DNA of 60,846 bases from a virus (lineage: Duplodnaviria; Caudoviricetes), in the IMG/VR virus record IMGVR_UViG_3300020473_002126, positions 1-60,846 of that record. One strand, given 5' to 3'. This document shows positions 542 through 51,671 of this stretch, in pieces. Each line of letters opens with the position of its first letter. Position 1 is the stretch's first letter. Below the pieces are notes generated by a model. That model was given only the letters and a program-made list of their open reading frames with translations, ran no database searches and was not told the origin of the DNA. Position numbers and translations under genes: made by a program.

Positions 542-1069
542 TTGTTAAAGAAGATTACAAAACTATTTAAAAGAGCAAAAAACTTTATTGCTAATAAAGT
601 AGATCGGCGGATAGTAAAGTGGTATGCAGGTCTTGCTATTTGTATTTCAGGTTTAGAGATTGCGTACTTGAATGGCACTCTAAAAGAGATATATGAAAAT
701 GATCCGACAAAAATTAGCGTTGGAATTTTCTTAATTTTAATCTGGCAAACATTTAAAGCTGGATTTATTCTGTTTGAAAGAAATAGAACAGGTTTTAAGG
801 CTAATAAAGATGCGTTTAAAAAAGACATCGAGTCCGGATGGTTTTGGAGTGATTCTGTTCTATCACTTGGTATGGTGGGAACGGTGATTGGATTTATGTC
901 AATGCTAGCCGGTTTTATAACACTTGATATTGCAGATCCCGAGTCTGTTCAAGGAATAATCGCTCAACTAGGATCGGGAATGGCTACGGCATTAACAACA
1001 ACTCTAGTTGGGTTGATAGCGAGCATCTTGATAAAGGTTCAATTTTTTATGTTAGATAACATGGACTAA
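542..1069 (+). CDS. MotA/TolQ/ExbB proton channel family protein
   Basis: LSLGMVGTVIGF and GMATALTTTLVGLIASIL match the two conserved TM helices of ExbB/TolQ/MotA; TTG start uncertain. Confidence 0.85.
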   Translation: MLKKITKLFKRAKNFIANKVDRRIVKWYAGLAICISGLEIAYLNGTLKEIYENDPTKISVGIFLILIWQTFKAGFILFERNRTGFKANKDAFKKDIESGWFWSDSVLSLGMVGTVIGFMSMLAGFITLDIADPESVQGIIAQLGSGMATALTTTLVGLIASILIKVQFFMLDNMD

Positions 1070-1070
1070 A

Positions 1071-1670
1071 ATGCGTCGATCTTATCATTCAAATACAGCA
1101 TTCTTAGATTTGCTATTCAACACGCTGTTGGGTTTTGTTGCTTTTTTTGCAATAACTCTGATTCACGTAAAAAAAGATGCATCAGACAGCGCTTTAAGTG
1201 AAGTTGAACTTGATTCTCACGTTTTAATAATTGCTTCTTGGCCTGAACATCATACAGATGATATCGATATGTACGTGAAAGACCCTAAGGGTGGGATTGT
1301 TTTCTTTCGAAATAAAGACAACGATATTATGCATTTAGACAGAGATGATTTAGGGAGGGAGGGCGAGTATTACTATGGAAGCGATGAAGAAGATTACGGG
1401 ACTAATAGAGAGATGGTAACTATTAGAAAGAAGTTCCCAGGAGAGTATGTTGTCAATTTACATGCATACACGAAATCAGGTGATGATCCTGTGCCGGTAG
1501 AGGTAAAAGTATACAAAATTAAAGACGGTAGGCTTGTTCATGACGAGTTAATTTTTATAGAACATAGAGGTCAAGAAAAGACAGCTATAAGACTAGATGT
1601 CAAAGAAGACGGAAGTGTTTTGATAAAAGAGCCTCGATATCTACCTATTGCAAGAGACATCGTGAGGTAG
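1071..1670 (+). CDS. ExbD/TolR/MotB-type anchored protein with YfaP/DUF2135-like beta domain
   Basis: Single N-terminal TM with Asp (AFLDLLFNTLLGF); WxxxxxDDIDMYVKDP, LDRDDLG, NREMVTI, PGEYVVNLHAY pattern. Confidence 0.7.
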   Translation: MRRSYHSNTAFLDLLFNTLLGFVAFFAITLIHVKKDASDSALSEVELDSHVLIIASWPEHHTDDIDMYVKDPKGGIVFFRNKDNDIMHLDRDDLGREGEYYYGSDEEDYGTNREMVTIRKKFPGEYVVNLHAYTKSGDDPVPVEVKVYKIKDGRLVHDELIFIEHRGQEKTAIRLDVKEDGSVLIKEPRYLPIARDIVR

Positions 1671-1672
1671 AC

Positions 1673-2179
1673 GTGCTATTTCCAATGTATATCGCTTTAC
1701 TTTCGGCAGCTGTCATAGGCATGATTGCTATGCCTACAAAGAAACACACGTTCAAGACGTTGGTGTTGATAACTCTTTTAAGTCACGGTTACTTGACAAC
1801 TTATGCTACACTAAAAGAAATTAGCGGATATCCTACTAATGACGACCTTCCAGAAGAATTTGAGATAGTTTGGGCAAAGGTTGAAGAAAGCGGAGATGAA
1901 AAGTTTATTGAAATATGGGTTAAGTATGACACTGACTTTCATGAAAGAATTTATTCTAAGTTTTCTCTTGCGCGCTTGCCCAGTCAAGTTTCAAGAGTTC
2001 ACATACTTCCATACACAGAAGAAAACCATGAGTTTGTAGAGACTACTCAAGAAAAAATCATTGCGGGACAAAAAGTGGGCGTGATAATTGAGCCGGGTCA
2101 GGAAAATGAAGAAGTAGACTTGAGAAAATCTCAAGAACAGTATCAGATTCAGTATGAAAATAACAAGATAGCGAAATAA
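1673..2179 (+). CDS. Membrane-anchored hypothetical protein, third gene of the MotA-like cassette
   Basis: Two N-terminal hydrophobic segments and an acidic soluble domain; 2 nt after the preceding gene. Confidence 0.7.
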   Translation: MLFPMYIALLSAAVIGMIAMPTKKHTFKTLVLITLLSHGYLTTYATLKEISGYPTNDDLPEEFEIVWAKVEESGDEKFIEIWVKYDTDFHERIYSKFSLARLPSQVSRVHILPYTEENHEFVETTQEKIIAGQKVGVIIEPGQENEEVDLRKSQEQYQIQYENNKIAK

Positions 2180-2187
2180 ATAATTTT

Positions 2188-2787
2188 ATGCAGAAACCCA
2201 CAATGCAAAATAAAAATGTCTTTACATTGTTAAAGGAAAATACGGGTCTAGTTTCAGAGGGTTTGTTGTATCACCTGGAAAAAGAAATTCCTATTAGTGA
2301 AAACATCTACAGACCTGGATCAGATAATTTTTTCAAACTATTTAGAGAGGTCAGAAATCTTCACAGACATGGTCTCTATGAACTAGATGAATCAGAAATA
2401 TACTTTATTGAAGAATTAGACATTGGAGAATTTGGGATTTATGAAGGTGAGTCTGTACCCTTAGATTTTCCACTCTTAGAGGTTAATGAATTAGATGAGG
2501 CCAAATACAAGGGTCGAAAAGTCAAGCTTGGTAAAAAGGGTGCAAAAAGATCAAAGGGAGGAAAAGCTCACGTTTACGTCAGAGATCCAAAGTCAGGAAA
2601 TGTGAGAAAGATACCTTTTGGATCATCTATGCCCGATGCTATGGGAGATAGTCCAGAGCACAAGAAACGCAGAAAGAGTTTTGGTGATAGACACGGTTGT
2701 GCTAAAAAGAAAGACAAGACCAAAGCTGGATATTGGGCATGCAGAGCAACAAAAATGTTTGGTAGGAACATACCCGGGTGGTGGTAA
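2188..2787 (+). CDS. Putative internal head protein with basic C-terminal domain
   Basis: Acidic N-half with LxE/IxE motifs, switching at LDE to AKYKGRKVKL...RRKSFGDRHGC...AGYWAC, a domain type recalled from marine T4-like phages. Confidence 0.6.
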   Translation: MQKPTMQNKNVFTLLKENTGLVSEGLLYHLEKEIPISENIYRPGSDNFFKLFREVRNLHRHGLYELDESEIYFIEELDIGEFGIYEGESVPLDFPLLEVNELDEAKYKGRKVKLGKKGAKRSKGGKAHVYVRDPKSGNVRKIPFGSSMPDAMGDSPEHKKRRKSFGDRHGCAKKKDKTKAGYWACRATKMFGRNIPGWW

Positions 2788-3587
2788 TGAGCGTTTATCC
2801 GTTTAAAGAAGCAGTAATTTCTGAGAGTCTGAAGATCAGATTATTTGACAAGTCAGTAAGTATCGACGATCTTGTTTGGCATAGAGATGAAAACTGTCGC
2901 GTCATAGAAGTAGTCTCAGGGAATGGCTGGTCTTTTCAAAGAGACAATGAGTTGCCTACTAGTTTGAAAGAAGGTGATGTTTTCAACATTGAAAAAGAAT
3001 CATGGCATAGACTGATAAAAGGCGAAGATGATCTGGTGTTGATGATTTCAGAGAAGAAAAAGAAAAAGCAGAAAAAACTCCCTTCTCAATATGATGCTCC
3101 TCCGAAAAGCAAAAGAGCTAAACTACTTAAAAAAGCATCTGACCTCTATAAGAAAGGTGATATAAAGGGCGCTGCTAGAATCAGACAAAATATGGAGAAA
3201 AAGCACATGGGCGAATCAGTTCGCTTACTAGAAGCAGATGAACTCAAAGGGATGATTTACGATATCACAGAAGAGATCAAGCTTGATGAAGTGCTTAATG
3301 AAGTAGAGAAAATTCTCCAAGAAAAGAAGAGAAAGAAGAGCGGTAAATCACCCAAAGGATTGTCCAAGGCGGTAAAGAAATCTCTTGATAAAAAGGCAGA
3401 TCGACGATGCCTAACACGGGGATCCGTCTATTCAGAGTTTAGAAAGGGGCTTTCCGCCTTTCTTTCATCCGGATCAAGAAAAGGAATGACAGCCCACCAA
3501 TGGGCCCATGCGCGCGTTAACTCAGCACAGCCAAGTAAAAAGTGGGCAACAGTTAAGAAGAGAAAGAAGTGTCCAAAGAAGAAATGA
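2787..3587 (+). CDS. Putative processed virion polyprotein: cupin-like N-terminal domain plus basic domains
   Basis: ATG 2787 overlaps the upstream TAA; LVWHRD...WHRLIKG cupin-like His motifs; C-terminal RKGLSAF...QWAHARVNS; Lys runs follow ISE and LQE. Confidence 0.6.
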   Translation: MSVYPFKEAVISESLKIRLFDKSVSIDDLVWHRDENCRVIEVVSGNGWSFQRDNELPTSLKEGDVFNIEKESWHRLIKGEDDLVLMISEKKKKKQKKLPSQYDAPPKSKRAKLLKKASDLYKKGDIKGAARIRQNMEKKHMGESVRLLEADELKGMIYDITEEIKLDEVLNEVEKILQEKKRKKSGKSPKGLSKAVKKSLDKKADRRCLTRGSVYSEFRKGLSAFLSSGSRKGMTAHQWAHARVNSAQPSKKWATVKKRKKCPKKK

Positions 3588-3644: not shown

Positions 3645-4565
3645 ATGACAGTTAGACTAGGTTATGCTTGTATTAACATGAGCCTCCAAGAAAGGCGCCC
3701 TGGAAAGGTTACATGCAACAGAGGTATGATTAGGCGCACATTTTTAGCCAAGGGTGCAGAATACGCTTCACAGCTTGCATTGCTCAACTCTCTTGATCTT
3801 ATCAAGATTATTGCATGGAACAACGAGCAAGGGATAAAGGTGTTCAGGATGACATCATGCCTATTTCCATGGATGTCCGAGTATGAACTAGAAGATCTTC
3901 CTGATTATGAAGGCATCAAGGCAAATCTAGAATATGCAGGTAGAATTGCTCGAGAGAACAATCAGCGACTTTCTTTTCACCCTGGGCCGTTTAATATTCT
4001 ATCTTCCCCCAAGGAAAAGGTTGTCCAGTCTTCTTTGCTAGATCTGACCCGTCACGGTGAGATCATGGACCTGCTTGGTCAGCCGCGTAGCCACTGGGCC
4101 AAGATTAACATCCACCTGGGTGCTGCGTACGGTGATCGTGAAGGATCGATCGATCGATGGTGTAGAAACTTTGAGTTGCTTCCTGACTCTGTCAAGACTC
4201 GTCTCACACTAGAGAACGACGACCGTGGAAATCTCTACTCGACAAAGATGCTTTACGACGGTGTCTACAAGCGACTCGGTGTTCCCATTGTCTTTGACTC
4301 TCATCACTTCGAGTGCGGTCCGCAGGACACGCCGTACGACGAGGCAATTGGCATGGCTGTGGAAACGTGGCCTGATGGTATCACGCCACAGTGTCACCAC
4401 TCAAACTCCAAGCGCGACTACGAAGATCCAACAGTGGCCAAGTCTGCTCACAGCGCTTATTACTACAAACCCTTCGAAAGCTGTGGGCACACAGTCGATG
4501 TTGTACTAGAAGCGAAGGCGAAAGAACGTGCATTGTTCAAGTATATGAGAGACTTTTGTGCTTGA
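3645..4565 (+). CDS. uvsE: UV DNA damage endonuclease UvsE/UvdE
   Basis: RLGYAC, FRMTSCLFP, RLSFHPGPF, INIHLG, RLTLENDD, VFDSHH, LEAKAKE motifs. Confidence 0.95.
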   Translation: MTVRLGYACINMSLQERRPGKVTCNRGMIRRTFLAKGAEYASQLALLNSLDLIKIIAWNNEQGIKVFRMTSCLFPWMSEYELEDLPDYEGIKANLEYAGRIARENNQRLSFHPGPFNILSSPKEKVVQSSLLDLTRHGEIMDLLGQPRSHWAKINIHLGAAYGDREGSIDRWCRNFELLPDSVKTRLTLENDDRGNLYSTKMLYDGVYKRLGVPIVFDSHHFECGPQDTPYDEAIGMAVETWPDGITPQCHHSNSKRDYEDPTVAKSAHSAYYYKPFESCGHTVDVVLEAKAKERALFKYMRDFCA

Positions 4566-5137: not shown

Positions 5138-6349
5138 ATGGCTAGTACTATAAAAAAATCAACAATGACGAAGGAGCACAAAAGATATCTTGCGGCTTCT
5201 AAAAATAGTAGTACAAAAGTTAAGACTAATCATGAAGAAGTTAAAAAACTTAACGAAGAGATTAGTTATATAGACGAAGACATTAATAATTCAGAGGAGA
5301 ATAGTATGTCACAAGATTTTGACGATTTTGATTTTGTGAGTCATTTTGATGAGAATGCCGAGGTGGGTAGCGATGAGTTACTACCAGAAAACGAAGCACC
5401 CAGTTCATTAAACTGCGCTTTTATCGGACTAGGTGGAGGAGGTGGAAAACTTGCTAAATCTTTTCTTGATCTAGGTTTTAACAAGACTATTTTAGTAAAC
5501 ACGACTGAAAAAGATCAACCTAGCGGTGTAGATCCAGATCATTTTTTGCTGATTCCAGGTGCTGACGGTGTTGGTAAAAATGTTGAATTAGGCGAAGGCG
5601 TGCTTTCTGAGAACTCTACACTTGTCGAAGATGCGCTCAGAACAAAAATAGGTAAGGTTGACTGGATTTTCGTATGCTCAGGTGGCGGAGGCGGAACAGG
5701 CAGTTCAGCAGGCGTCCTTCATGAATCTTTTGAGCGCCATTTAAAATCAGTCCAGGGTGAAGGCAGGGTTGTTTATATTATATCAACACCGACTGCTCAA
5801 GAACTTCTAAACCCTACAATCAAGCAGAATTCAAAACACCTGAGCGACGCTGTTAGTAGTCATCCACACATCGTCTTAGATAACGAGAAGCAATTAAAGT
5901 TACTAAGAGGAAAAGTAGGGATGCTCGACATGTATCCGGCTGCGAACAAAGCGTTTGCCAAGATGCTGTCCCAGGTTTTAAAGCTTTCTAGTGAGTCTTC
6001 AACTGTTCAGACTTTTGACTCAAAAGATCTTGAAGCATGTCTAAAATCACCTGGGCGAATCTTTGTAGGAACGTCTATCGTTAGAGACGCATCTCAAAGA
6101 GGGTTGGGTTCAATTATTTTTCAAAGTTGCCTAAAAGGCTCACCTTGCCAGTCCGTCAATGGAAAAGGATCTGCTGGTGCTTTGGTTTTAGTCGCACCTT
6201 CCAATATTTTAGATGACGCTGCTATTAGCAATCACCTAGAATCAGCGATCTCTTATGTGGGCGGCAGAGTAGACACACTATTTTCAGGTGTCTATGTAAA
6301 TGACAATGCGCCTGGACTAATTTCAATTATGATGGTTTGCGGTTTATAA
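5138..6349 (+). CDS. Tubulin/FtsZ family GTPase (PhuZ/TubZ-like); alternative start at 5306
   Basis: FIGLGGGGGK, VNT, GADGVGKN, SGGGGGTGS signature loop, LDNE, and T7-loop-like TFDSKD. Confidence 0.9.
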   Translation: MASTIKKSTMTKEHKRYLAASKNSSTKVKTNHEEVKKLNEEISYIDEDINNSEENSMSQDFDDFDFVSHFDENAEVGSDELLPENEAPSSLNCAFIGLGGGGGKLAKSFLDLGFNKTILVNTTEKDQPSGVDPDHFLLIPGADGVGKNVELGEGVLSENSTLVEDALRTKIGKVDWIFVCSGGGGGTGSSAGVLHESFERHLKSVQGEGRVVYIISTPTAQELLNPTIKQNSKHLSDAVSSHPHIVLDNEKQLKLLRGKVGMLDMYPAANKAFAKMLSQVLKLSSESSTVQTFDSKDLEACLKSPGRIFVGTSIVRDASQRGLGSIIFQSCLKGSPCQSVNGKGSAGALVLVAPSNILDDAAISNHLESAISYVGGRVDTLFSGVYVNDNAPGLISIMMVCGL

Positions 6350-6750: not shown

Positions 6751-8058
6751 GTGAGTAAAACACAAAAAAGAAAAACATTTATAGTTGACACTAATGTGCT
6801 GCTTTATGACAAAACCTCTATACACTCATTTCCAGGAGCAAAAGTAGTACTGCCGCTGACAGTATTAGATGAACTAGATAGGTTTAAAGATAAACCCGGC
6901 CTATTGGGTGAATCAGCCAGATATGTCAATAGGTTCTTAGATGAAGTTCGAAAAAGCGGTTCACTAACCGAGGGTGTCTTTATTGAAGATATCGATCAGA
7001 TAATAAAGGTGGAATTCAATAATGTAGAATTACTACCTGCTGATTTAAATCATACTACAGGTGACAACAAGATACTGGGTGTAGCATTACAACTAGCTAG
7101 AAATGAAGATATCACGGTAATCACAAAAGATATTAACTTTAGAGTAAAGTGCGATGTTCTAAAAATACCGTCAGAAGATTATTACAAAGATCATATCAGT
7201 AATCTAGACAATATGGATGACCTCTACTCTGGTCAAGACGAAGTATCAGTTGGAAAAGATCAGATTGATGATTTCTTTGCAGATGAAAAAATTCCTGCAC
7301 CTGAAATAGAAGGGAGTGAGTATCATGAAAATCAATTTTTCGTTCTAAAATCAAATTCGTGCAAAGCATCCGCTCTAGCAAAATATCAAAAAGGAGATTT
7401 GGTAGCTGTAAAACCCACTATAAATGATATGGTTAAAGTGAAACCTAGAAATAAGGAGCAAAAATTTGCTTTAGAGTTGCTTACTAATGATAAAATACAG
7501 TTAGTAACTATTACAGGTATTGCCGGGTCTGGCAAGACATTCTTAACTCTCATGAGTGCTCTTTCTGGGATCTATAGCGAAAGATACAATAGAATTGTCA
7601 TAACAAGATCTATGCAGCCTGTAGGTAAAGAAATAGGCTTCTTGCCCGGGACACTTGATGAAAAAATGTCCCCGTGGATGTCTCCCATTGTTGATAATTT
7701 TAGATGCAACTTCAAAGATATCACATATTTTGAAATGATGTGCCAAAAAAGACAAATTGAGGTTGCTCCTTTGACTTATATGAGAGGTAGAACTTTTAAT
7801 GATGCTTTTATTATTGTTGATGAAGCACAAAATGCTACAATTCATGAATTGAAAACTATTATTACTAGAGTAGGGGACAATTCTAAGGTTGTCCTCTTAG
7901 GTGATGTAGAGCAGATTGATACCCCCTATATTGATAAGCTGTCAAATGGTCTTTCTATTGTGACTGAAAAGTTCAAAGAATCCGAAATAACCGGCCACAT
8001 ACGGCTAGAAAAGGGTGAGCGATCACCATTAGCTACATTAGCATCAAAAGTTCTCTGA
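6751..8058 (+). CDS. phoH: PhoH-family ATPase with N-terminal PIN domain (PhoH2/YlaK type)
   Basis: VDTNVLL, ELD, DNKIL and TKDINFRVK PIN motifs; GIAGSGKT, IGFLPG, YMRGRTF, DEAQN, GDVEQID. Confidence 0.95.
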   Translation: MSKTQKRKTFIVDTNVLLYDKTSIHSFPGAKVVLPLTVLDELDRFKDKPGLLGESARYVNRFLDEVRKSGSLTEGVFIEDIDQIIKVEFNNVELLPADLNHTTGDNKILGVALQLARNEDITVITKDINFRVKCDVLKIPSEDYYKDHISNLDNMDDLYSGQDEVSVGKDQIDDFFADEKIPAPEIEGSEYHENQFFVLKSNSCKASALAKYQKGDLVAVKPTINDMVKVKPRNKEQKFALELLTNDKIQLVTITGIAGSGKTFLTLMSALSGIYSERYNRIVITRSMQPVGKEIGFLPGTLDEKMSPWMSPIVDNFRCNFKDITYFEMMCQKRQIEVAPLTYMRGRTFNDAFIIVDEAQNATIHELKTIITRVGDNSKVVLLGDVEQIDTPYIDKLSNGLSIVTEKFKESEITGHIRLEKGERSPLATLASKVL

Positions 8059-8715: not shown

Positions 8716-11700
8716 ATGAGTAACCCTAAAGACTTTTTAGCTAAACAGATAAGAACTAACACTTTAATAGTGTCAGGTGGTAATTGGGCGATAGGATCAG
8801 ATGGATCATCCCCGGGACTGCTAATTTATTCTGCATCATTGGCCCCTGACTTTGTCGGTGGTAGGCCTGACAAACTGTTCTCAGGATCAGGCAATTTTGG
8901 AATGGTCCAGATTTATCAAACAGCAGCGAAGATTAATGGAGGTTTGGCTGTATCAAACACTCATGGTGGTAACGTTAGAATAGCTTTTGATCAAGAAATG
9001 GACATCAACCCGCACGTTGCAACCCAAAGGGTGACAAAAGCTCATGTTCTTTTGGGATCAGGCTCGAATGCAGTTCCATTTATAACATTTGTTTCCGGGT
9101 CTAGCTCGAGTCCAGGTGGTACAACCCAGAGAATGTTTTTACTTTCTCAGTCCATTGGTGGTACTCATCCTCACACCAGCTCCAACACTGCTGCTAACAA
9201 CCCATACAACATGTTGGATGTCAACTTTTGGGTGTCTGGATCTAAAGGTTCTAAGAGAAGCTCTGGAACTCCGGGTTCTCATGTACCCACGTACTGCGGT
9301 ACCGCTGTGTTCGGAGGTGACCTTGTAGTATCAGGAACACTTTATGCAGAAAGACAGGTAATTGAAGTTGACGTATCACAGTCTGGTTCGCTTTTTGTCT
9401 CAGGGTCAGCAGAAATTGGCGGTGGTCTTATCGTCAATGAGCACGGTGGTTCCGTTGCTACACAATGGAGAAATAGAGAATCAAACAACTTCCTCTATTT
9501 CAACCCAGCCGGTGATAGCAATAATGGAAGAATAGGTATTGGTAATAATGATTGGTCAGCTTCGACAGTCCCAGCTGCGCCTCTGCACATAGCTGAAGAA
9601 AATTCGGCGACCAACTCAGTTGTAGACCAACTATTCCTTCAAGTAAAATCATCAGGAACACCTGCAGCAGGGCTGGGGTCGAACACAACTTGGACTGTAG
9701 AAACTGTTGCTGGTAACCATATCATCGCCGGATTAGAAGTTATAACAACAGATGCTGGATCTGGAACTGAAGACGGGGCTATGGTCTTCAAGACAATGAC
9801 GGCCGGGCAAACAAGGACCGAGAAATTTAGGATCGGTGCTAATGAAACTGTTGTCAATGAAGGTAACATAAATCACGACTTCAGAGTAGAAGGAAATAGT
9901 GCATCTGCCACTAATCTATTTTTAGTAGATGCAAGCTTAGATAGGGTTATCGTTCAAGGAGCAACCGGAGATGATACAGAGTTATTTAAGGTAATCGGTA
10001 ACGATGATGCAGGAAGTGGTCAGGAGGCTGACTTTTTAACTATCTCCCCAACGAAAGTCGTTATAAATGAAGATGGTCAAACAGTCGACTTCAGGGTTGA
10101 AGGTAAAAATAGAGCTCACGCGTTATTCGTAAATTCTCAAGTAGCCTCAGGGTTTGATCAAGTCTTAATCCTTTCAGGTGGAGGAAGCGGCGGATCGACT
10201 GATAATGATGACGCTGCAGGTACTGACGTTGCTTTTTACGTGTCAGGATCAACTTCATTTGGAGGAGGCGCAGGTCGAACCGAACCCGGCACTTACGGTA
10301 TTAGTTTATTCGGTGGCGATCTCCACTCGTCAGGAAATATCACGGCAGACGGCCGAGTCGGACCATGGGTTGATGGTGGGACATTTGTTTATCCTTACGG
10401 TACTGAACACCTGGTATTAGGTGCCACAACGATCGCAGCATCAGATATCATTCTATCAGCTACAGGATCTGCGACATTCAACAATCAGTCTTCAGCTAAC
10501 GGTGACTTTAGAATCAAGAGTCAGACAGACGAATCTATGGTGTTTGTCGACGCAAGTGGTGATGTAGTAGGTATAGGGACTGACGCACCAAATGGAAGTG
10601 CGCAGCTTCACGTCGGTAACTCAGGAGCTTCTTCACTTGCTTCAACAGTGCTTTATCTTGAAAATGAAAGTGCTAGCTCTGCAGATGTCAAAATCTGGTT
10701 CGGTAAAAATGCAACAGTAAAGCATGCGATAGGTTTGGATGATGATGATAGTGATAAGCTCAAAATCGTCTTGGGCGGCCTTCTCGGAGCTTCAAATAAA
10801 ACACTGATGGATTTTCCGTCAGCATTCGGTAATGCAATAGTAGTTAACGAAAGTGGCCAAGATTTAGACTTTAGAATTGAAAGTGAAAATGATGCCAATC
10901 TTTTCGTTGTTGACGCGTCGACTGATTCTATTGGAATCAATGTGGCTGCTGGTTCTCATGGGGCAAGACTGGATATACTAGCAAATGATGCAGGTGAAAA
11001 GGGTTTGTTGGTTACTTCAAATCCTGGGTCTGGTCTCCAAGGTGGCGATGTTGCTAAATTTGTTAGCGGATCTTCAGAGGTATTTTCAATCGGTGGTAGC
11101 GACGGTGACGTTGTTGTTAATGAAGCTGGCGCAGATAGAGACTTCCGAGTCGAGACGAGCGGAGATGACAAAGCGTTTGTAGTTGATGGTGGTACAAATA
11201 CTGTTGTTGTTAACGAAGATGGAGATGGTGCAGACTTCAGGGTTGAAACAGCTGCAGAAGACGAAGCCCTTTTCATAGACGCTTCAGCAAATACCATTTA
11301 CATTAATAAGGGTGAGGAAGCAGTAACTACAATCATAGGTAGTACAAATGATGAAGCAATCAGAATTGGTGCTGCTGGCGTTATTTTCAATGAAGATGGC
11401 CATGGAACCAATGACTTTAGAGTTGAGTCAAATAATAAACCAAATGCACTGTGGGTAGATTCTGGGCGTGATTATGTAGCGATCCTCACAGGCTCGGGAC
11501 CGGTTATAGACAACGGTAAGGCCGGAACAGATGTTTGTTTCTTTGTATCAGGATCTAATGATAAGGATACAGCGGTACGAGGTGTCTCAGTATTCGGTGG
11601 TGACGTAGTTGTCTCTGGTACTCTTTATGATGGTAGTGGAAACGCAGTAACCAAAAACTACGGAAAAATGGCAGTACTCGATACTGGTGGTAGTACAGAG

Positions 11701-12357
11701 GGCACTGCTGAAGCTGGTAGCGTAGGTGATACATTCAAGCTAAAAGAAGGAACAGGTATTGGGTTGTCTATCAATACAGGCACCGATACAGTTACAATAT
11801 CAGCAAATATTGGAACGGCTTCCCCAGCGTTTACAGATAGAGGGTTCCAAACAGGACATGTTGAAAAACATCGCGGTACATCAATTATTTGTACAAGCTC
11901 AATTGCTTTTGTAAGTGGTAATCACATTGGTGGTGTATCTCCAGTGGCTTACGATGCTTCTAATGTAGGAACCGATACTTTCTTCTTTGTCTCTGGTTCT
12001 ATTGGTGGCAAGGCAGCTTCAGCAGCTAATAGACATGGTGTGGCCACATTTGGTGGTGATGCAGTAATAAGCGGAACCTTCTACACAGGTGGAAATACTG
12101 TTCTTGGAGATGCAACTTCTGACTCTGTCACCTTTAATGGAAGAGTTGGTTCACACATACTTCCATCTGCTGATAGTACATATAACTTAGGAAGCAATTC
12201 GCTAAGATTTGCCAACGTTTATACTGGAGACCTTCATTTGAGGAATGATAGAGGTAACTGGACTATTTACGAAGAACCGGACATGTTGGTTGTTGTTAAT
12301 AACTTAACAGGAAAGAAATATAAGATGGGACTTACCCCGCTAGAGGATGATGAATAA
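8716..12357 (+). CDS. Long tail fibre protein with internal repeats
   Basis: Gly/Ser/Thr/Asp rich; repeated VVNExGxxxDFRVE and FxVSGS...FGGDxVxSG units; C-terminal LGSNSLRFANVYTGDLHL...GNWTIYE...TGKKYK domain recalled from marine myovirus fibres. Confidence 0.85.
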   Translation: MSNPKDFLAKQIRTNTLIVSGGNWAIGSDGSSPGLLIYSASLAPDFVGGRPDKLFSGSGNFGMVQIYQTAAKINGGLAVSNTHGGNVRIAFDQEMDINPHVATQRVTKAHVLLGSGSNAVPFITFVSGSSSSPGGTTQRMFLLSQSIGGTHPHTSSNTAANNPYNMLDVNFWVSGSKGSKRSSGTPGSHVPTYCGTAVFGGDLVVSGTLYAERQVIEVDVSQSGSLFVSGSAEIGGGLIVNEHGGSVATQWRNRESNNFLYFNPAGDSNNGRIGIGNNDWSASTVPAAPLHIAEENSATNSVVDQLFLQVKSSGTPAAGLGSNTTWTVETVAGNHIIAGLEVITTDAGSGTEDGAMVFKTMTAGQTRTEKFRIGANETVVNEGNINHDFRVEGNSASATNLFLVDASLDRVIVQGATGDDTELFKVIGNDDAGSGQEADFLTISPTKVVINEDGQTVDFRVEGKNRAHALFVNSQVASGFDQVLILSGGGSGGSTDNDDAAGTDVAFYVSGSTSFGGGAGRTEPGTYGISLFGGDLHSSGNITADGRVGPWVDGGTFVYPYGTEHLVLGATTIAASDIILSATGSATFNNQSSANGDFRIKSQTDESMVFVDASGDVVGIGTDAPNGSAQLHVGNSGASSLASTVLYLENESASSADVKIWFGKNATVKHAIGLDDDDSDKLKIVLGGLLGASNKTLMDFPSAFGNAIVVNESGQDLDFRIESENDANLFVVDASTDSIGINVAAGSHGARLDILANDAGEKGLLVTSNPGSGLQGGDVAKFVSGSSEVFSIGGSDGDVVVNEAGADRDFRVETSGDDKAFVVDGGTNTVVVNEDGDGADFRVETAAEDEALFIDASANTIYINKGEEAVTTIIGSTNDEAIRIGAAGVIFNEDGHGTNDFRVESNNKPNALWVDSGRDYVAILTGSGPVIDNGKAGTDVCFFVSGSNDKDTAVRGVSVFGGDVVVSGTLYDGSGNAVTKNYGKMAVLDTGGSTEGTAEAGSVGDTFKLKEGTGIGLSINTGTDTVTISANIGTASPAFTDRGFQTGHVEKHRGTSIICTSSIAFVSGNHIGGVSPVAYDASNVGTDTFFFVSGSIGGKAASAANRHGVATFGGDAVISGTFYTGGNTVLGDATSDSVTFNGRVGSHILPSADSTYNLGSNSLRFANVYTGDLHLRNDRGNWTIYEEPDMLVVVNNLTGKKYKMGLTPLEDDE

Positions 12358-15300
12358 TGGCTTTTATAGGATCACTAACTGTAACAGGATCTTCCACCAG
12401 CACTGTAAAGAAAGGTGAAGCTAGGTGGATCGCAGCAGGTAATGCAGGTTCGACCGGTAGTATAGGGCTCGTATTGCAGTCAGGAGACTACGGTAACGCT
12501 CAAGAAAGAGATGCTAGTGGAAGTATCGTTTTTGTAAGTAAAAACGGGGGATCTACTAATAGGGCAGGTGTTATAACTTCTCAACCCTACATAAATCAAG
12601 ATCTTATTTTTAGTAGCTCACAGTCACACTCAGACATTAGATTTACTGTAAATGATAATGGGTCAATGGTCAACCTCATGACTATCACTGCCGGTAGAGG
12701 TTCAGGCGGAATTACAGCTCATCGAAAACCTAAAGTTTATATCTCTGATACTGCGGGCGGGTACGATAGAACAGGAGGTAGTGCAGGAACGGGAGGCTCA
12801 TTTAAATACAGGTCCCAAGGCCTTTTGTCTGTTGTTACAGAAACTAATGTTCCTGCAGTTCAAATAATACATACTGGTACATCCACTGAGCCGGCGCTAG
12901 AAATCAGGAAGAAGCACAGTGGAGCTAATCAATATAGCTCACTATTTCAAGTAAAACATTCAGAAACCGTAGTTAATGAGACAGGTGATGCTTATAACTT
13001 CAGAATAGAATCAGATAATCAAGTTAACATGTTGTTAGTCGATGGGACTAATAATAGAGTCGGTATTGCAAACAATGCGCCGATGGCTTCATTAGACGTC
13101 AACGACGCAGGTGGAACATACTGCGTAGTCTTGAGAAACAACGATAGTGCAGGTCCTGCTGCGGGTTTTTCTGCTATTTCTATAGGAAGTACTGGACAAA
13201 CGGTGTTCACTGGATCAAGCGGTGTATATAAGTTTAAGGGTGGTGGCGCCAATGGCGAGGGCGACACAAAATTTCACATTATCGCAAAATCTACTGCAAA
13301 CACTCCAGGTGACGCGCAACTATGGTTCTCTGATGAAAACGACGCTGGTACAAAGACTGACAGAGTCTATGTGGGTTACGATAAAGGTGATGATCGCTTC
13401 GTGGCCGGAAAGAGTTCTACTTGGGGAGCTAATGAGTACATAGGGTTTAACGATTCTGAAGTTGTAATTAACGACGACAGTACAAGCGTTGATTTTAGAG
13501 TTGAGTCAAACAATCTTACTCACTTCTTGTTTTGTGATAACTCCACCAACAGGGTGGGTATAGCCACTTCCGCGCCGATGAATTCACTGCAAATCAATCA
13601 TGGTAATGCAGATGGCGGCGATGGCGCCATGATAGTCAGGGCTGACGTGACGACTGGGGAAGACGATTGGTTAGGGGGGATTGGTTTTGACTCACTTGAT
13701 GGCAATGTCCCTAGCTCTGTTAGAGAAGCCTCTGTATACATCGGCGCACGTGCTGCTGAAGCCCAGGGTGAAGGAGACAAGGGAGGTTACCTAGTCATAG
13801 GAACCTCAGCAATTGACGAAAATGACGATACAACTTCTACAGAGAGATTGAGAGTCGGGCCTGACGGTCTTGTCCAGGTTTCAGGTAGTTTAAGAATTCG
13901 AGATAGTTTGATTGTTGGAGACAACATTATTCGTGCATCTGACGGTGGTGCTACTATCACAATGGATACTAGTGATAATGTGACACTTGCCGGGAATTTG
14001 ACAATACCGCAATACATTTATCACGCTGCAGACACAGACACATATCGACAATTCGGCGTTAATACGCAGGTTTTTGTTGTAGGAGGGGCAGAGAGGCTTA
14101 GACTCAATTCAGACGGTACATCAATAGGTACTGTCACACCTGTTTCCAATCGAGAACTCGCAGTAGGTAGTACAAGTGGCGGCCGCGTTTCTCTCAGAGA
14201 CACAGGAGCCGCCTCAGAAACTAATTGTCTAAGCTATATTGATTTCTGGCAAGGGCAAAGTACAAAGCTACTTGGCTGGGTGGGTCATGCAGACACTGGG
14301 AACCAGCACCTGCAGATTTACAACAAGTCATCTTCTGGAAATCTCTACATGTCGTCATCCAATGATATCACGCTTGACCCCGATAACGGATTTATTCGAT
14401 ATAGGCGGAACGGGTACTGGGGTGGCGGGTTCAAGTCCGACGATCCGAGCACTACAGTAGCTAACAATGGGTTCATCGCTAGATATATCGGGTATACCGG
14501 GTATAACGGTGATACATACATCAACCTAGCAGGGGCGTCAGTTGGTGTCGGCACATCTCCCTATAATGGGAAATACATGCTAGCATCTCACTCGTTCGTT
14601 CATAGCGGCACCACGTATAGAGGAACGGATGGAGCCACAACTCCCACAAACACCTCCTACACCGGCTACAATCCACTCACCAGCACCAATCACGCAGGGA
14701 GCCCGTCGAGCACTTCACCAAGTGACAATACACACTTGGTGACGCCACTCTCTGCGAGATCGGTGCTGCTAAACAAGGGTAGCTCAGTAAAAGTCGACTT
14801 TCAGAATTCTGTAGCATTCCACGGATCTGACGATGAGTTTTACATATATTTTCAGTATATGATCTGGTCGAACAACGAGGAACCCAACGACGAGGCTTAT
14901 TTTTACTTCCTGAACTCCAGTGGCACTCACCTGACTGTCGATGGTACCTGGTATCTTGAAGTTGATAACGGATCCGGTGGATGGACTCAAATAATGTCCG
15001 ACGATGACACTACTTTTCTCTCTATCGACACCACGTTAGACAACTATAATGATTCAAAGTGGCGCTGGTATAGAATCAGGGGGACAAACGCTGCCGATAT
15101 TAATGCCCTTTGCGGAATGGAGTTTAAAAACTTCAACAACGTCTCCGGCGAGTACCAGCAGGTCGCCAATGTTACGATTAGATCATTGACAAATGATCGA
15201 AAATGGTATACAGTCCTGAGAGGCGCGCTCGGCAATGATGGCTACAGTCAAGGTGATAATTTTGGAAATGGCGGCCGAGACGGGGATGCTCTGATAGGTG

Positions 15301-15905
15301 ATGGAAATCAGTCTGCAGCTATTGATAATTCTACTGACTGGCTGATATACATTCCTAGAAATGGAAGGGCTCGTTTTACGCACAATTATTGGAATGGCTC
15401 CGCCGGGTCCGGTGCCGCTGGCTACACAACTTCATGGCTGACAATATGGAGAAAGGCAGACATATACGCTAATATAGGAATATACGATTCTACTCCTGAT
15501 TATCGTCTAGACGTTAACGGTGATATTAATACGAATGGTCAGCTTAGAGAGAGTGGAAGTACTAGTACATCTGATGAAAGATTAAAAGAAAATGTTGTTG
15601 ACATGGATCCTGTCCTTGACCAGGTTTTACAAATAAAACCTAGAAGATTTGACTGGAAAGAAGATGCCCGCGGGGGAAGACTAGCTCGTGAAGAGTATCG
15701 AACAGGAGACATGGGGTTTATTGCTCAAGAACTCGAAACAGTATTTCCTGAATATGGGCTTAATTTAGTAGACGTGGGTGATGATAAAGAAAAGACAAAA
15801 GGTGTAGCTTACGGAAAAATGGTAACTATACTTACAAAAGCTATTCAAGAATTAAATCAAAAAGTTGTAGATTTGCAAGCTGAAGTTGACAGCTTAAAGC
15901 AGTAG
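12357..15905 (+). CDS. Tail fibre protein with C-terminal peptidase S74 intramolecular chaperone
   Basis: NRVGIA...P...LDV fibre repeats; TSDERLKENV...FDWK...GFIAQELETVFPE...YGKMVTILTKAIQEL and terminal coiled coil. Confidence 0.9.
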   Translation: MAFIGSLTVTGSSTSTVKKGEARWIAAGNAGSTGSIGLVLQSGDYGNAQERDASGSIVFVSKNGGSTNRAGVITSQPYINQDLIFSSSQSHSDIRFTVNDNGSMVNLMTITAGRGSGGITAHRKPKVYISDTAGGYDRTGGSAGTGGSFKYRSQGLLSVVTETNVPAVQIIHTGTSTEPALEIRKKHSGANQYSSLFQVKHSETVVNETGDAYNFRIESDNQVNMLLVDGTNNRVGIANNAPMASLDVNDAGGTYCVVLRNNDSAGPAAGFSAISIGSTGQTVFTGSSGVYKFKGGGANGEGDTKFHIIAKSTANTPGDAQLWFSDENDAGTKTDRVYVGYDKGDDRFVAGKSSTWGANEYIGFNDSEVVINDDSTSVDFRVESNNLTHFLFCDNSTNRVGIATSAPMNSLQINHGNADGGDGAMIVRADVTTGEDDWLGGIGFDSLDGNVPSSVREASVYIGARAAEAQGEGDKGGYLVIGTSAIDENDDTTSTERLRVGPDGLVQVSGSLRIRDSLIVGDNIIRASDGGATITMDTSDNVTLAGNLTIPQYIYHAADTDTYRQFGVNTQVFVVGGAERLRLNSDGTSIGTVTPVSNRELAVGSTSGGRVSLRDTGAASETNCLSYIDFWQGQSTKLLGWVGHADTGNQHLQIYNKSSSGNLYMSSSNDITLDPDNGFIRYRRNGYWGGGFKSDDPSTTVANNGFIARYIGYTGYNGDTYINLAGASVGVGTSPYNGKYMLASHSFVHSGTTYRGTDGATTPTNTSYTGYNPLTSTNHAGSPSSTSPSDNTHLVTPLSARSVLLNKGSSVKVDFQNSVAFHGSDDEFYIYFQYMIWSNNEEPNDEAYFYFLNSSGTHLTVDGTWYLEVDNGSGGWTQIMSDDDTTFLSIDTTLDNYNDSKWRWYRIRGTNAADINALCGMEFKNFNNVSGEYQQVANVTIRSLTNDRKWYTVLRGALGNDGYSQGDNFGNGGRDGDALIGDGNQSAAIDNSTDWLIYIPRNGRARFTHNYWNGSAGSGAAGYTTSWLTIWRKADIYANIGIYDSTPDYRLDVNGDINTNGQLRESGSTSTSDERLKENVVDMDPVLDQVLQIKPRRFDWKEDARGGRLAREEYRTGDMGFIAQELETVFPEYGLNLVDVGDDKEKTKGVAYGKMVTILTKAIQELNQKVVDLQAEVDSLKQ

Positions 15906-25251: not shown

Positions 25252-26568
25252 ATGTCAACAAAAGATAAAATAAAAGAAATAATGAGCCGCTTCCAGACTT
25301 CTGATAGCTCTAGAAAAAATGGGCCGGCAACTTATCTTGGCAATACACCAGATATCTTCAAGGCTTACGAGACAAAAAACCCTGATGATCTCCCAATACC
25401 TCAGTGCGTTCAATTTGAAATTACAAACTTCTGTACAACTGGGTGCAGAATGTGCTTCCGATGGACATGGTTAAAACAGCGAGACTATGATGAAACCGCA
25501 GAACTAACTGTTGAAAGACAAATAGAGTTGTTTAAAGAACTGGCTGATTTAGGAGTAAAAACTTTTTTGTGGACAGGCGGCGAACCTGTTTCCCACCCAG
25601 AGTTTGTCAGGTTAATTAAAGCAGCACACGGTTTTGGCGTAGAAGTCGGTGTATTGAGTAACGGTGTAGGAATAGATAGAAAAATAGCAGACGCAATGGT
25701 TCAATATGGTTCATGGGTTCGAATATCGCAAGATGATGTAAAGACAGACTTTGAGAAAAAGAATGTGAGAACTGTTTTAGAAGCACCGTCTTATGGAAAG
25801 AATCACGGCGATATTTTTGAAGAACTTGACAAGTCTATAGGAAATCTAAGAAAAGCAATGGAAGAGCACCCAGATTCTAACTTTTCAATAGGTTTAGCAT
25901 TCACTATTCAGAAAAACAATGTAAGAAGCATCCCGGAGATGATAGCATACGCAGAAGAAAACAAAATTAAAGCTTCAATGAAATTAGCTCACGGTGAAGG
26001 CGGCAAGTACTTGTGCACAAAAGAAGATCTAGACTGGATAAAGAATGATCTTCTTACAAATGATGACTTAGTTAATTCTGAATATTCAAACTTAAACTAT
26101 TTGAAAGACTACTTTTTAAATCTGTTAGACGAACAAGACATTATTGAAGGACTACCTACAAGAAAATATTATGACAACAATGATATCACATGCTTCACAA
26201 CAGAGTTGTTTTCTTTGATTGATGCGTTCGGGCGTACTTACGTTTGCTGTCACTTGTATGACGATAATGGCACGTTTAAATCTGATCAAAGAGACAAATA
26301 TAACATTGGCGATGTGACTACTAATAGTTTTGAGTCAGTCTGGAGAAGCAATGCTTATCAAAAAATAAGAGAAGAGCTTTCTCCAATCGATGTCTGTAAT
26401 ATGCATTGTTCCAACTGTACTAGACATTGGGTTCCAAACACTGTTTTAACGTCCTTACACAAAGAAGTATTTACACCATTGAAAGAAGAACTAGGCTTAG
26501 AAGAAGGACTGAAAGAATATAAAAAAGCTGCACTAGATCTTTCAGTGAATACACCTGTATGGCACTAG
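25252..26568 (+). CDS. Radical SAM enzyme with SPASM/twitch domain
   Basis: CTTGCRMC, TGGEP, SNG; C-terminal C...G.TYVCC...IG...CxxC. Confidence 0.92.
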   Translation: MSTKDKIKEIMSRFQTSDSSRKNGPATYLGNTPDIFKAYETKNPDDLPIPQCVQFEITNFCTTGCRMCFRWTWLKQRDYDETAELTVERQIELFKELADLGVKTFLWTGGEPVSHPEFVRLIKAAHGFGVEVGVLSNGVGIDRKIADAMVQYGSWVRISQDDVKTDFEKKNVRTVLEAPSYGKNHGDIFEELDKSIGNLRKAMEEHPDSNFSIGLAFTIQKNNVRSIPEMIAYAEENKIKASMKLAHGEGGKYLCTKEDLDWIKNDLLTNDDLVNSEYSNLNYLKDYFLNLLDEQDIIEGLPTRKYYDNNDITCFTTELFSLIDAFGRTYVCCHLYDDNGTFKSDQRDKYNIGDVTTNSFESVWRSNAYQKIREELSPIDVCNMHCSNCTRHWVPNTVLTSLHKEVFTPLKEELGLEEGLKEYKKAALDLSVNTPVWH

Positions 26569-46616: not shown

Positions 46617-48134
46617 GTGTATAGAATTCTTAAAGCATTGAAAGACACGTACATTACTAATAGGATTGTTTCTAATAATTTTAGAGCAAAAGATGCAAAT
46701 GTAGGCCAGGCAGGAACGCTGGATCTTTTTAAACTGCACGATGAAAATACGCTGACGGGAACTGCAGCCCCACAAGAACTCTCTAGAATTCTAGTAAAGT
46801 TTGACTTAAGTAATTTGCAGTCATTGACAGGTTCAACATTGGACATTAATCATTCGTCATTCAAGTGTACTTTAAAACTGTATGACGTTTACGGTGGGCA
46901 ACCTACACCTGAAAACTTCAAAATAATAGTTCATCCCCTCTCTAAGTCATTTGATGAGGGGACAGGCATGGACATAAGAAATTACAGTCATTTGGGTAGC
47001 TGTAACTTTATAACTGCATCTGCAACTAGTGGAAATCCTGTCGTCTGGAACAGTCAAGGAGCCAATGCATCAGGTATTTTAGGACAGAGTAATATTGACA
47101 TAATATCAAGTGGTAACCTCAAAGATGGCGATGGTGTTGCAAATTTATTTAAAACCCAATCATTCGCTACGGGTTTAGAAGATATCTCTATTGATATAAC
47201 AACATTGGTTTCTGCCACAATCGCCGGCTTATTACCAGACCATGGTTTGAGAATAGCATTCTCAGGAACACAGGAAACAGATACAAAGACTCGATTTGTC
47301 AAAAGATTCGCATCAAGACATTCGTCAAATGATAGAAAAACGCCCAGAATTTGCGTTCAATATGATGATAGTGTTCACGATGATCATGAAAACATGTTTT
47401 TTGATTTGACAGGATCTTTGTTTTTAAGAAACTATCACAGAGGTCAGCTAGCAAACCTAAGGTCAGGATCTAGCTTAACTGAGATTACAGGTGACAATTC
47501 TATTCGGCTGAAGATAAAGTCAGGTTCTTGGTATAAATTATTGACAGGATCACAACACAAAATAGGGTCTGCTGCTGTTTCTGGAACATACTCAGCTTCA
47601 TTTGCTATTTCATCGCTGACTACCGAGCTGACAGGAGAAATAAATGCAGCAGGATCTGGAACTTTTAATCTGTATTGGATTTCATCAGACCAGACAGTTG
47701 CTTATCACACTGGTTCTTTAGTTATCAATTCAATTACAAGAAACTCTTTCTCTAGTAATCCTAGAAAGTTAAATTTCACAATTATGAATCAAAAGCCTTC
47801 TTATTTAAGCACTGAAAAGGTTAGATTTAGAGTTCATGTAGAAGATATATCTCCGGTTGTAAAAAGAGCTAGAAAAGTCCCGATAGAAAATAAAACAATA
47901 CTGTTTAGAAATATGCATTATCGAGTTGTCGATGCACAGACAAACGATGTAATAATTCCGTTTGATGAGTCAAAAAATTCGACAAGACTATCTTCGGATG
48001 GAAATGGGATGTTTTTTGATATGTATATGGATTCGCTGACCAAGGGTAGAAACTATATGATACATTTTAAAGTGTCAGATATGGGAACTACGATCATTGA
48101 TCGCGATGCAGGAATTAAATTTCGGGTAGATTAA
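46617..48134 (+). CDS. Probable baseplate/tail structural protein
   Basis: KDTYIT, SRILVKFDL, PRICVQYDDS beta-sandwich pattern; follows gp6; rich in TGS/SGS. Confidence 0.7.
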   Translation: MYRILKALKDTYITNRIVSNNFRAKDANVGQAGTLDLFKLHDENTLTGTAAPQELSRILVKFDLSNLQSLTGSTLDINHSSFKCTLKLYDVYGGQPTPENFKIIVHPLSKSFDEGTGMDIRNYSHLGSCNFITASATSGNPVVWNSQGANASGILGQSNIDIISSGNLKDGDGVANLFKTQSFATGLEDISIDITTLVSATIAGLLPDHGLRIAFSGTQETDTKTRFVKRFASRHSSNDRKTPRICVQYDDSVHDDHENMFFDLTGSLFLRNYHRGQLANLRSGSSLTEITGDNSIRLKIKSGSWYKLLTGSQHKIGSAAVSGTYSASFAISSLTTELTGEINAAGSGTFNLYWISSDQTVAYHTGSLVINSITRNSFSSNPRKLNFTIMNQKPSYLSTEKVRFRVHVEDISPVVKRARKVPIENKTILFRNMHYRVVDAQTNDVIIPFDESKNSTRLSSDGNGMFFDMYMDSLTKGRNYMIHFKVSDMGTTIIDRDAGIKFRVD

Positions 48135-51655: not shown

Positions 51656-51663
51656 ATAATTAA
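51656..51663 (+). promoter_or_regulatory. Candidate phage late promoter ATAATTAA
   Basis: Starts the 16 nt gap before ATG 51672; no Shine-Dalgarno. Confidence 0.3.
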
Positions 51664-51671
51664 TCACTGTT

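Follow-up and report, generated by a model that had tools for sequence, protein, structure and literature searches.

A three-gene membrane locus in a phage genome, probably a new branch of the MotA/ExbB family of ion-driven motors

Ion-driven motors of 5:2 subunit stoichiometry power flagella, TonB-dependent uptake, the Tol-Pal system, gliding and Zorya. In the solved Ton and Tol complexes, according to the available part of one report, a third protein is bound to the subcomplex of ExbB or TolQ with ExbD or TolR (PMC12215075). The accessible portion of a survey of MotAB relatives describes non-flagellar B subunits that bear diverse DUF appendages, and names phage only for phage defence, that is, for Zorya (PMC12505986); the closest published item to the locus described below is a phage gene that the available part of PMC11361711 lists as auxiliary under the name 'TonB-system energizer ExbB'. 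Here we describe three adjoining genes, P1, P2 and P3 (together, the trio), that lie in the viral IMG/VR record IMGVR_UViG_3300020473_002126, the whole 60,846 bases of which form the stretch of DNA analysed (the window). Our literature search, which left subscription-only papers and supplements outside its reach, found no account of this trio, nor any paper containing the word 'DUF2135', the name of a domain family that enters the argument below.

We read the trio as a self-contained, inner-membrane, ion-driven motor of the MotA/ExbB/TolQ superfamily, acting as an envelope energiser with a periplasmic output, and to this specific reading we give about an even chance. Because conservation of the trio is strict across hundreds of phages and proteobacterial chromosomes, it is probably a new branch of the MotA/ExbB motor family and not a phage oddity. 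The genes, and the parts of them on which the argument turns, are as follows.

542-1069, + strand: P1, 175 amino acids, TTG start
866..1033, + strand: conserved ion-pathway helices of P1 (residues 109-164), with G110, G113, T114 and G117 in the first and A150, T153, T154 and G157 in the second
1071-1670, + strand: P2, 199 amino acids, ATG start
1107..1109, + strand: codon of Asp13 of P2, in the motif A-F-L-D-L-L-F-N of its membrane helix
1221..1628, + strand: predicted periplasmic beta-sandwich of P2 (residues 51-186, AlphaFold2 model)
1673-2179, + strand: P3, 168 amino acids, GTG start

An initial annotation, made from the sequence, had proposed three tightly coupled membrane genes between 542 and 2179 in DNA of viral origin. 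Both points were borne out, the record being viral and the open reading frames lying at exactly these positions, with one nucleotide between P1 and P2 (TAA-A-ATG) and two between P2 and P3; a GAGG sits 6 nucleotides upstream of the P3 start. Natural variants recovered from other marine metagenomes differ at 17 sites over P1 to P3, of which 14 are synonymous, and 2 codons carry amino-acid changes. Since P2 has many relatives and the variants are mostly synonymous, P1, P2 and P3 are genuine genes and not chance open reading frames, and the phage copies evolve under purifying selection. A promoter and terminator scan of the region returned 4 promoter-like sites, fewer than the mean of 10.3 in shuffled sequence, and none of them upstream of P1.

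Relatives of P2 are numerous. At E<=1e-3 we retained 283 among 362 candidates, and a profile search at the same threshold gathered 2194 clusters at 50% identity, nearly all of about 200 amino acids; relatives occur on 192 viral contigs and in 54 of 401 sampled genomes of Alphaproteobacteria. Gene order was compared in 84 phage loci (the window, 80 of the 192 IMG/VR hits and three cultured Rhizobium and Sinorhizobium phages) and in 80 close bacterial loci taken from 228 hits. A P1-like gene stands directly upstream of P2 in 83 of the 84 phage loci, the sole miss being a contig edge, and a P3-like gene stands downstream in all 84; in bacteria each partner is found in 79/80 loci, and in a divergent alphaproteobacterial branch each is found in 8/8. 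That the three genes might fail to co-occur elsewhere, which the initial annotation had named as fatal to its proposal, was thus not seen. The trio stands by itself: no neighbouring family recurs in more than 16 of the 84 phage loci, where the neighbours are ordinary replication and auxiliary genes, and among bacteria the only candidate for a fourth member, a downstream gene of 229-232 amino acids, is present in just 8 of the 80 loci. The only cultured phages in which we found relatives of P2 are those of Rhizobium and Sinorhizobium (29 records, at least three genome types); the trio is present in Rhizobium phages 16-3, P10VF and RHph_N3_19, and in phage 16-3 it corresponds to p038, p040 and p042, with small extra genes in between. 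The P2 and P3 families occur in the same order in the genomes of at least 228 bacterial species. The output domain of P2, which the initial annotation had presented as a phage novelty, is accordingly no phage invention.

P1 belongs to the MotA/ExbB/TolQ family, as had been proposed: residues 109-164 match Pfam MotA_ExbB (PF01618) with 31.1 bits against a cut-off of 22.9 (E 2.2e-7), and the same model is found in 42 of 43 P1 relatives. Hydropathy marks three strong helices (58-78, 105-131 and 145-173) and a weaker N-terminal one (28-44), so that the helix count is probably four. Across a non-redundant family of 146 sequences the pore threonines are nearly fixed, T114 in 145, T153 in 137 (with serine in the other 9) and T154 in all 146, and G110, G113 and G157 are each present in 146/146. 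Against solved structures, the family profile matches PomA best (E 0.0056), followed by MotA (0.023) and TolQ (0.2), and the alignment, which covers TM3-TM4 (transmembrane helices 3 and 4) of PomA, places T114, T153 and T154 on PomA T158, T185 and T186. Those three are the sodium-selectivity threonines according to the available part of a PomAB preprint, in which the T158 and T185 positions are alanine in proton-driven MotA. Since P1 has threonine at all three selectivity positions, sodium coupling of its motor is possible. In PHROGs P1 has only a marginal match (E 0.059).

Phage and bacterial P1 differ in build, with median lengths of 172 and 236 amino acids respectively, and the alignment attributes this to a cytoplasmic insert of 50-70 residues that is present in the bacterial proteins and absent from those of phages. 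The inter-helix loop is about 25 residues long in the window P1 and in other phage copies, which do not have the sizeable cytoplasmic domain of the MotA/ExbB/TolQ type. P1 also draws weak matches to ZorA models (NCBIfam ZorA_4, E 3.3e-6, 26 bits; PADLOC ZorA2, E 1.9e-6), as would be expected if the phage carried a Zorya-like sensor or defence module. These matches, however, span some 60 residues of the common MotA/ExbB core, the 26 bits compare with a cut-off of 500, P1 with its 175 amino acids is without a long cytoplasmic tail, and neither P2, P3 nor the flanking genes match ZorB, ZorC, ZorD or any other PADLOC model. Membership of Zorya was therefore rejected, and we consider a Zorya-like module highly improbable.

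P2 consists of a basic N-terminus, a single membrane helix and a beta-sandwich. Its AlphaFold2 model, built from a 34-sequence alignment, has a mean predicted local distance difference test score (pLDDT) of 85.3, with the helix at 7-39 and strands over 51-186; hydropathy places the hydrophobic helix at residues 9-34, which includes Asp13. This residue is the intramembrane aspartate on which the initial annotation had based its case for a partner subunit, and the lack of conservation that the annotation would have counted as a refutation was not seen: among 413 non-redundant P2 sequences, 13 are gapped at that column, mostly through truncated gene calls, and 398 of the other 400 keep the aspartate. 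P1 ends within 9 nucleotides of the P2 start, or overlaps it, in 80 of 83 phage loci. P2 thus has the marks of a B subunit, namely one N-terminal helix, a conserved aspartate and a gene directly after the A subunit, and from position, topology and the invariant aspartate we infer that it is the B subunit of the motor. Also as anticipated, neither P2 nor its 34 relatives have a Pfam match at E<=1 to an ExbD/TolR or OmpA-like peptidoglycan-binding domain.

In place of such a domain P2 has a sandwich rich in conserved acidic residues. Near-invariant positions are W57, D64, D66, D90, R91, D92, D93, G95 and E114, and four of the acids are without exception in the family: D64 in 410/410, D66 in 411/411, D92 in 412/412 and E114 in 412/412. 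The nearest solved folds to the model are those of TerD, 2qz7_B (Z 9.8, root-mean-square deviation 4.0, 131 residues aligned) and 2kxt (Z 9.2, root-mean-square deviation 3.7, 134 aligned), the match ranked after these two entries reaching only Z 7.0, and Foldseek likewise returned entries of the TerD family (E 2e-4 to 8e-4). The predicted likeness is one of fold only, as the TerD sequence model PF02342 finds no match in 34 P2 relatives (E<=1) or in the window (E<=0.001). The initial annotation had called the domain YfaP/DUF2135-like. That it is a beta domain stands, and a weak resemblance can be recovered: PF09906 (DUF2135) matches 4 of 34 relatives below threshold (best E 0.027); hhalign aligns P2 with Escherichia coli YfaP over 89 columns (E 8.6e-4, probability 23.6%), with a motif pattern W..D.D..V..P.G ... 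G.Y.V..Y; and the nearest named cluster in the ESM Atlas is DUF2135 (score 0.89). These three supports are weak and partly dependent on one another, and the family label is weakly supported: the window P2 has no Pfam match at E<=1, and neither P2 nor its relatives reach the cut-off of PF09906. P2 could be assigned to no family in Pfam, NCBIfam, PHROGs or PADLOC.

TerD is a calcium-binding protein. Given the TerD-like fold and the clusters of invariant aspartate and glutamate, the P2 domain probably binds a divalent or trivalent metal and would serve in the periplasm as a stator or sensor. Against the sequences of solved structures, the P2 profile has one marginal match (PDB 11pb_C, E 0.15), in which P2 58-104 aligns with residues 272-319 of an 864-amino-acid phage 'virion structural protein', a D-D-V-D-x-Y-V-x-x-P-x-G stretch being present in both; phrog_1735, a model of 673 positions, weakly matches P2 54-147 (E 0.006). 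To judge by these sequences, structural proteins of phages may also contain this small sandwich module.

The third anchored protein of the initial annotation is likewise a consistent member of the locus, co-conserved with P1 and P2 and modelled with a membrane anchor. The AlphaFold2 model of P3 (39-sequence alignment, mean pLDDT 77.5) begins with a membrane hairpin whose two helices (2-19 and 23-49) are connected through a short basic loop, and continues with an alpha/beta domain of small size over residues 52-138 approximately and a short tail; by the positive-inside rule the domain would be periplasmic. In the family alignment G52 and Y114 are invariant and W82, R108, H119 and G132 are conserved at 90% or more; the domain opens with G-W-P, has a core of P-R-x-Y-x-L-P-Y-S-x-x-x-H-E, and in most members is followed by a C-terminal proline-rich motif, hydrophobic-x-hydrophobic-P-P-x-K-L-P-x-K. 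A low-complexity linker of 20-60 residues, rich in Gly, Lys and Glu, is a phage-specific elaboration of P3: 38 of 69 phage copies have it, against 0 of 79 from bacteria; two examples of copies that carry it are given here.

L016:2086-2700: phage P3 with linker
L080:4669-5310: phage P3 with linker

P3 has no match in Pfam, NCBIfam, PADLOC, PHROGs or PDB sequences, and a wide structural search with its model matched only generic helical hairpins. Synteny makes it a candidate subunit of the motor.

How the phage copies relate to those of bacteria was assessed in a quick, unfinished maximum-likelihood tree of P2 with 136 rows, from which a motif and length filter had dropped 13 rows, including the Rhizobium phage loci L002 and L003. 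In this tree 67 bacterial rows form one clade (support 94) whose order follows taxonomy, 51 viral rows form a separate clade, and 9 marine alphaproteobacterial (Pelagibacteraceae-like) rows stand beside the viral clade (support 85); only two changes of label between virus and bacterium are needed. On account of these clades and the two label changes, the phage copies appear to be an old lineage of their own and not the product of repeated recent captures, and the trio itself an old proteobacterial module of which one lineage lives in phages. The strongest bacterial matches to P2 (E 1e-81 to 1e-83) come from three streamlined alphaproteobacterial genomes of 0.8-1.1 Mb (G001, G192 and G324), and retention in genomes so reduced suggests that the trio has an important function there.

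The history of the phage lineage bears on whether the trio is a weapon or shield, either excluding superinfection at the envelope or supplying subunits that mix with the ExbBD, TolQR, MotAB or ZorAB complexes of the host to jam or hijack them. In phages the trio does lie amid genes of early or replication type (a sigma-factor decoy, exonuclease, primase and nucleases), and the lineage has traits of its own, namely a P1 stripped of its insert and the P3 linker. Yet bacterial chromosomes transmit these three families too, with identical catalytic residues and along taxonomic lines, as far as the quick tree can tell; the phage copies keep Asp13 and the pore threonines under purifying selection, as would be expected of a working motor more than of a decoy; and all three genes are always retained, which a single poisoning subunit would not require. 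We therefore regard an attack on, or barrier at, the host envelope as an unlikely role. A host-supporting auxiliary role is favoured by the bacterial contexts of the trio, by purifying selection and by the catalytic residues that the phage copies have kept. The initial annotation had suggested superinfection exclusion, interference with host TonB or Zorya motors, or nutrient uptake as possible functions; the bacterial gene neighbourhoods point to uptake, or to the energising of the envelope, more than to a weapon against the host.

Within 6 kb of the trio, 38 of the 80 close bacterial loci carry one or more genes of the 'PQQ-dependent alcohol dehydrogenase system' (pyrroloquinoline quinone, PQQ), an association that covers at least four lineages among the alpha, beta and gamma groups. 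The models matched were TIGR03861 (permease), TIGR03864 (ATPase), TIGR03866 (beta-propeller), TIGR03863 (binding protein) and TIGR03075 (dehydrogenase); the PQQ alcohol dehydrogenase itself is present in 24 of the 80 loci and a TonB-dependent receptor in 12. In the Ideonella paludis locus (L158) the ABC transporter genes of the PQQ system precede the trio on the same strand and with overlapping ends, and three further loci in Sphaerotilaceae and relatives share the gene order and the common strand.

L158:729-7800 (also L146, L136 and L161), all on the same strand: ABC ATPase, beta-propeller, binding protein, PedC-type permease, P1, P2, P3 and the protein of 229-232 amino acids

A PqqB-like gene heads this order in L158 and L146 only. 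The arrangement suggests a bacterial operon that joins the trio to the PQQ-system transporter, and the available part of a preprint ties the PedABC-type transporter family to lanthanide use in Pseudomonas putida. We take the PQQ neighbourhood as a lead and not as a definition of the trio.

The same neighbourhoods speak to a further alternative, in which the three proteins form a regulated ion leak, not a motor, depolarising or sensing the membrane so as to time lysis or stop host transport. Small membrane proteins with an ion path, of which P1 is without a cytoplasmic output domain, would suit such a device. However, the bacterial copies stand in housekeeping or uptake contexts, nothing related to lysis was identified beside the trio in the window or in the three annotated Rhizobium phages, and two conserved periplasmic domains with invariant residues are unnecessary for a leak, which we accordingly hold to be very unlikely.

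Read as an envelope motor, the trio would resemble TolQ-TolR-TolA or ExbB-ExbD-TonB in layout. The ion-conducting ring would be built from P1, presumably from five subunits in a 5:2 assembly, with two P2 helices at its centre, each bearing an ion-binding Asp13, and the flow of ions (protons, or possibly sodium, given the PomA-like threonine triad) would rotate P1 around P2. The acidic sandwich of P2 would be a periplasmic, probably metal-binding, stator or sensor, and P3, anchored by its hairpin and in most members ending in a proline-rich segment, would probably be the arm that transmits force to a target in the periplasm or outer membrane. Since phage P1 is without a cytoplasmic domain, the work would be delivered on the periplasmic side. 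During infection the phage copy would most likely supply or reinforce envelope energy transduction, for outer-membrane uptake or maintenance, and would not attack the host. A bolder extension is that the trio could constitute, next to Ton and Tol, a third class of trans-envelope energiser, as yet undescribed, with a calcium- or lanthanide-binding stator, which powers the delivery of metal or cofactor to periplasmic PQQ dehydrogenases or uptake via their outer-membrane receptors; the version carried by phages of marine and soil proteobacteria would then be stripped down and possibly sodium-coupled, and would keep this supply running or open the envelope during infection. We offer this extension as speculation and think it improbable.

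Several observations weigh against the motor reading. The ExbD, TolR and MotB models match nothing in P2 beyond its short helix, and the case for metal binding is made from fold and residue pattern. The anchor of TonB and TolA is a single helix with an SHLS-type Ser/His motif; P3 has two helices, in which no serine or histidine is conserved at 90% or more. A TonB_C or TolA match was sought in P3 with Pfam and PDB sequences and none was found, and Foldseek gave only weak matches (best E 0.04) to OB-like folds (oligonucleotide/oligosaccharide-binding) such as toxin B subunits and the Rvb2 DII domain. The P3 of the window has no Gly/Lys-rich linker, and its C-terminal motif is degenerate. It is synteny and analogy that argue for a physical association of P1, P2 and P3. 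The PQQ association is missing from 42 of the 80 close loci and from all 8 divergent ones, where the neighbours are unrelated housekeeping genes. Finally, a single metatranscriptome contig of 203 nucleotides covers 2068-2270 and does not show transcription of the trio, and the RNA runs of a possible source sample contained next to none of the sequence words sampled.

The record that holds the window is rated 17% complete by CheckV. All its large open reading frames lie on the + strand and it contains no tRNA gene; a protein identical to P2 is also recorded on a contig of 296,665 bases, and the window is therefore a fragment of a jumbo phage. Its DNA is present in marine plankton metagenomes of at least four further studies. 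Phage-type genes include a tail-fibre chaperone domain, PIN-PhoH, UvdE and a tubulin-like gene. The features outside the trio are these.

2188-2787: gene matching phrog_7595 (function unknown), preceding the next
2778-3587, + strand: Lys-rich protein of 269 amino acids with sub-threshold DUF5824 and cupin matches
3645-4565 and 6751-8058, + strand: UvdE UV-damage endonuclease (E 1.4e-54) and a PIN-PhoH fusion, just downstream of the trio
5138-6349, + strand: protein of 403 amino acids with a Gly-rich loop, G-G-G-G-G-K, and a sub-threshold Tubulin/FtsZ GTPase match (E 6e-4, 20.5 bits against a cut-off of 33)
8716-15905 and 48134-60844, + strand: five giant proteins of 1173 to >1863 amino acids
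16137-40409, + strand: block of about 24 kb of glycan-modification genes, with several GT2 and GT4 glycosyltransferases, two FkbM methyltransferases and DUF6625
25252-26568, + strand: radical SAM/SPASM enzyme inside that block

The product of 5138-6349 may be a phage tubulin of the PhuZ/TubZ kind, which would be consistent with a jumbo phage. One giant protein has a C-terminal endosialidase-chaperone domain (Peptidase_S74) and three have Laminin_G_3 lectin-like domains; the five are probably fibres or adhesins. The glycan-modification block is uncommonly large for a phage, and one of its FkbM methyltransferases carries a SAP domain.

The trio would add a widespread branch to the ion-driven motors, one whose stator domain and third subunit are both new, in a set of proteins that have no curated name beyond the Pfam match of P1. 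Phage biology would gain an auxiliary module for envelope energy, one that many jumbo phages retain. Its link to a PedABC-type transporter supplies a concrete hypothesis for the metal supply of periplasmic PQQ enzymes, which is an open question. As the trio occurs in cultured, tractable phages of Rhizobium and Sinorhizobium (16-3 and P10VF), and in the cultured bacteria Ideonella paludis and Caldimonas tepidiphila, its function is directly testable.

Of the described systems, TolQ-TolR-TolA and ExbB-ExbD-TonB are alike in gene order (A subunit, B subunit, third anchored protein), in the Pfam family of P1, in a B partner with a single N-terminal helix and an aspartate of the essential type and, by our proposal, in delivering work to the periplasm; some bacterial trio loci also adjoin TonB-dependent receptors and uptake ABC transporters. 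The trio departs from them in that P2 has a TerD-like, DUF2135-like acidic sandwich in place of the ExbD/TolR domain, P3 is anchored by two helices without an SHLS-type motif and gives no match to the C-terminal domain of TonB or TolA, and phage P1 is without a cytoplasmic domain. PomA-PomB and MotA-MotB provide the best solved-structure matches of the P1 profile, and share with P1 the threonine triad and probably the four helices; unlike them, the trio has no OmpA-like peptidoglycan-binding domain on P2, no torque-generating cytoplasmic domain on P1 and no flagellar genes nearby. With ZorA-ZorB it has in common only the weak matches from the shared core, and it is without the ZorA tail, a ZorB-type partner, ZorC or ZorD. 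The phage ExbB of PMC11361711 is also a phage-encoded gene of the MotA/ExbB family read as a host-supporting auxiliary; in the available part of that article it is an annotation only, with no partner genes, aspartate subunit or third protein described. For the P2 domain, TerD (PF02342) offers the nearest fold and DUF2135/YfaP (PF09906) a similar motif pattern and the nearest Atlas cluster, although neither Pfam cut-off is reached and the P2 domain differs from both in being tethered to a motor-type membrane helix, an attachment that we did not see for TerD or DUF2135 domains, no systematic check having been made. What is new in the trio is therefore the domain borne by the B subunit and the third subunit, to which the phage copies add an A subunit without its cytoplasmic domain.

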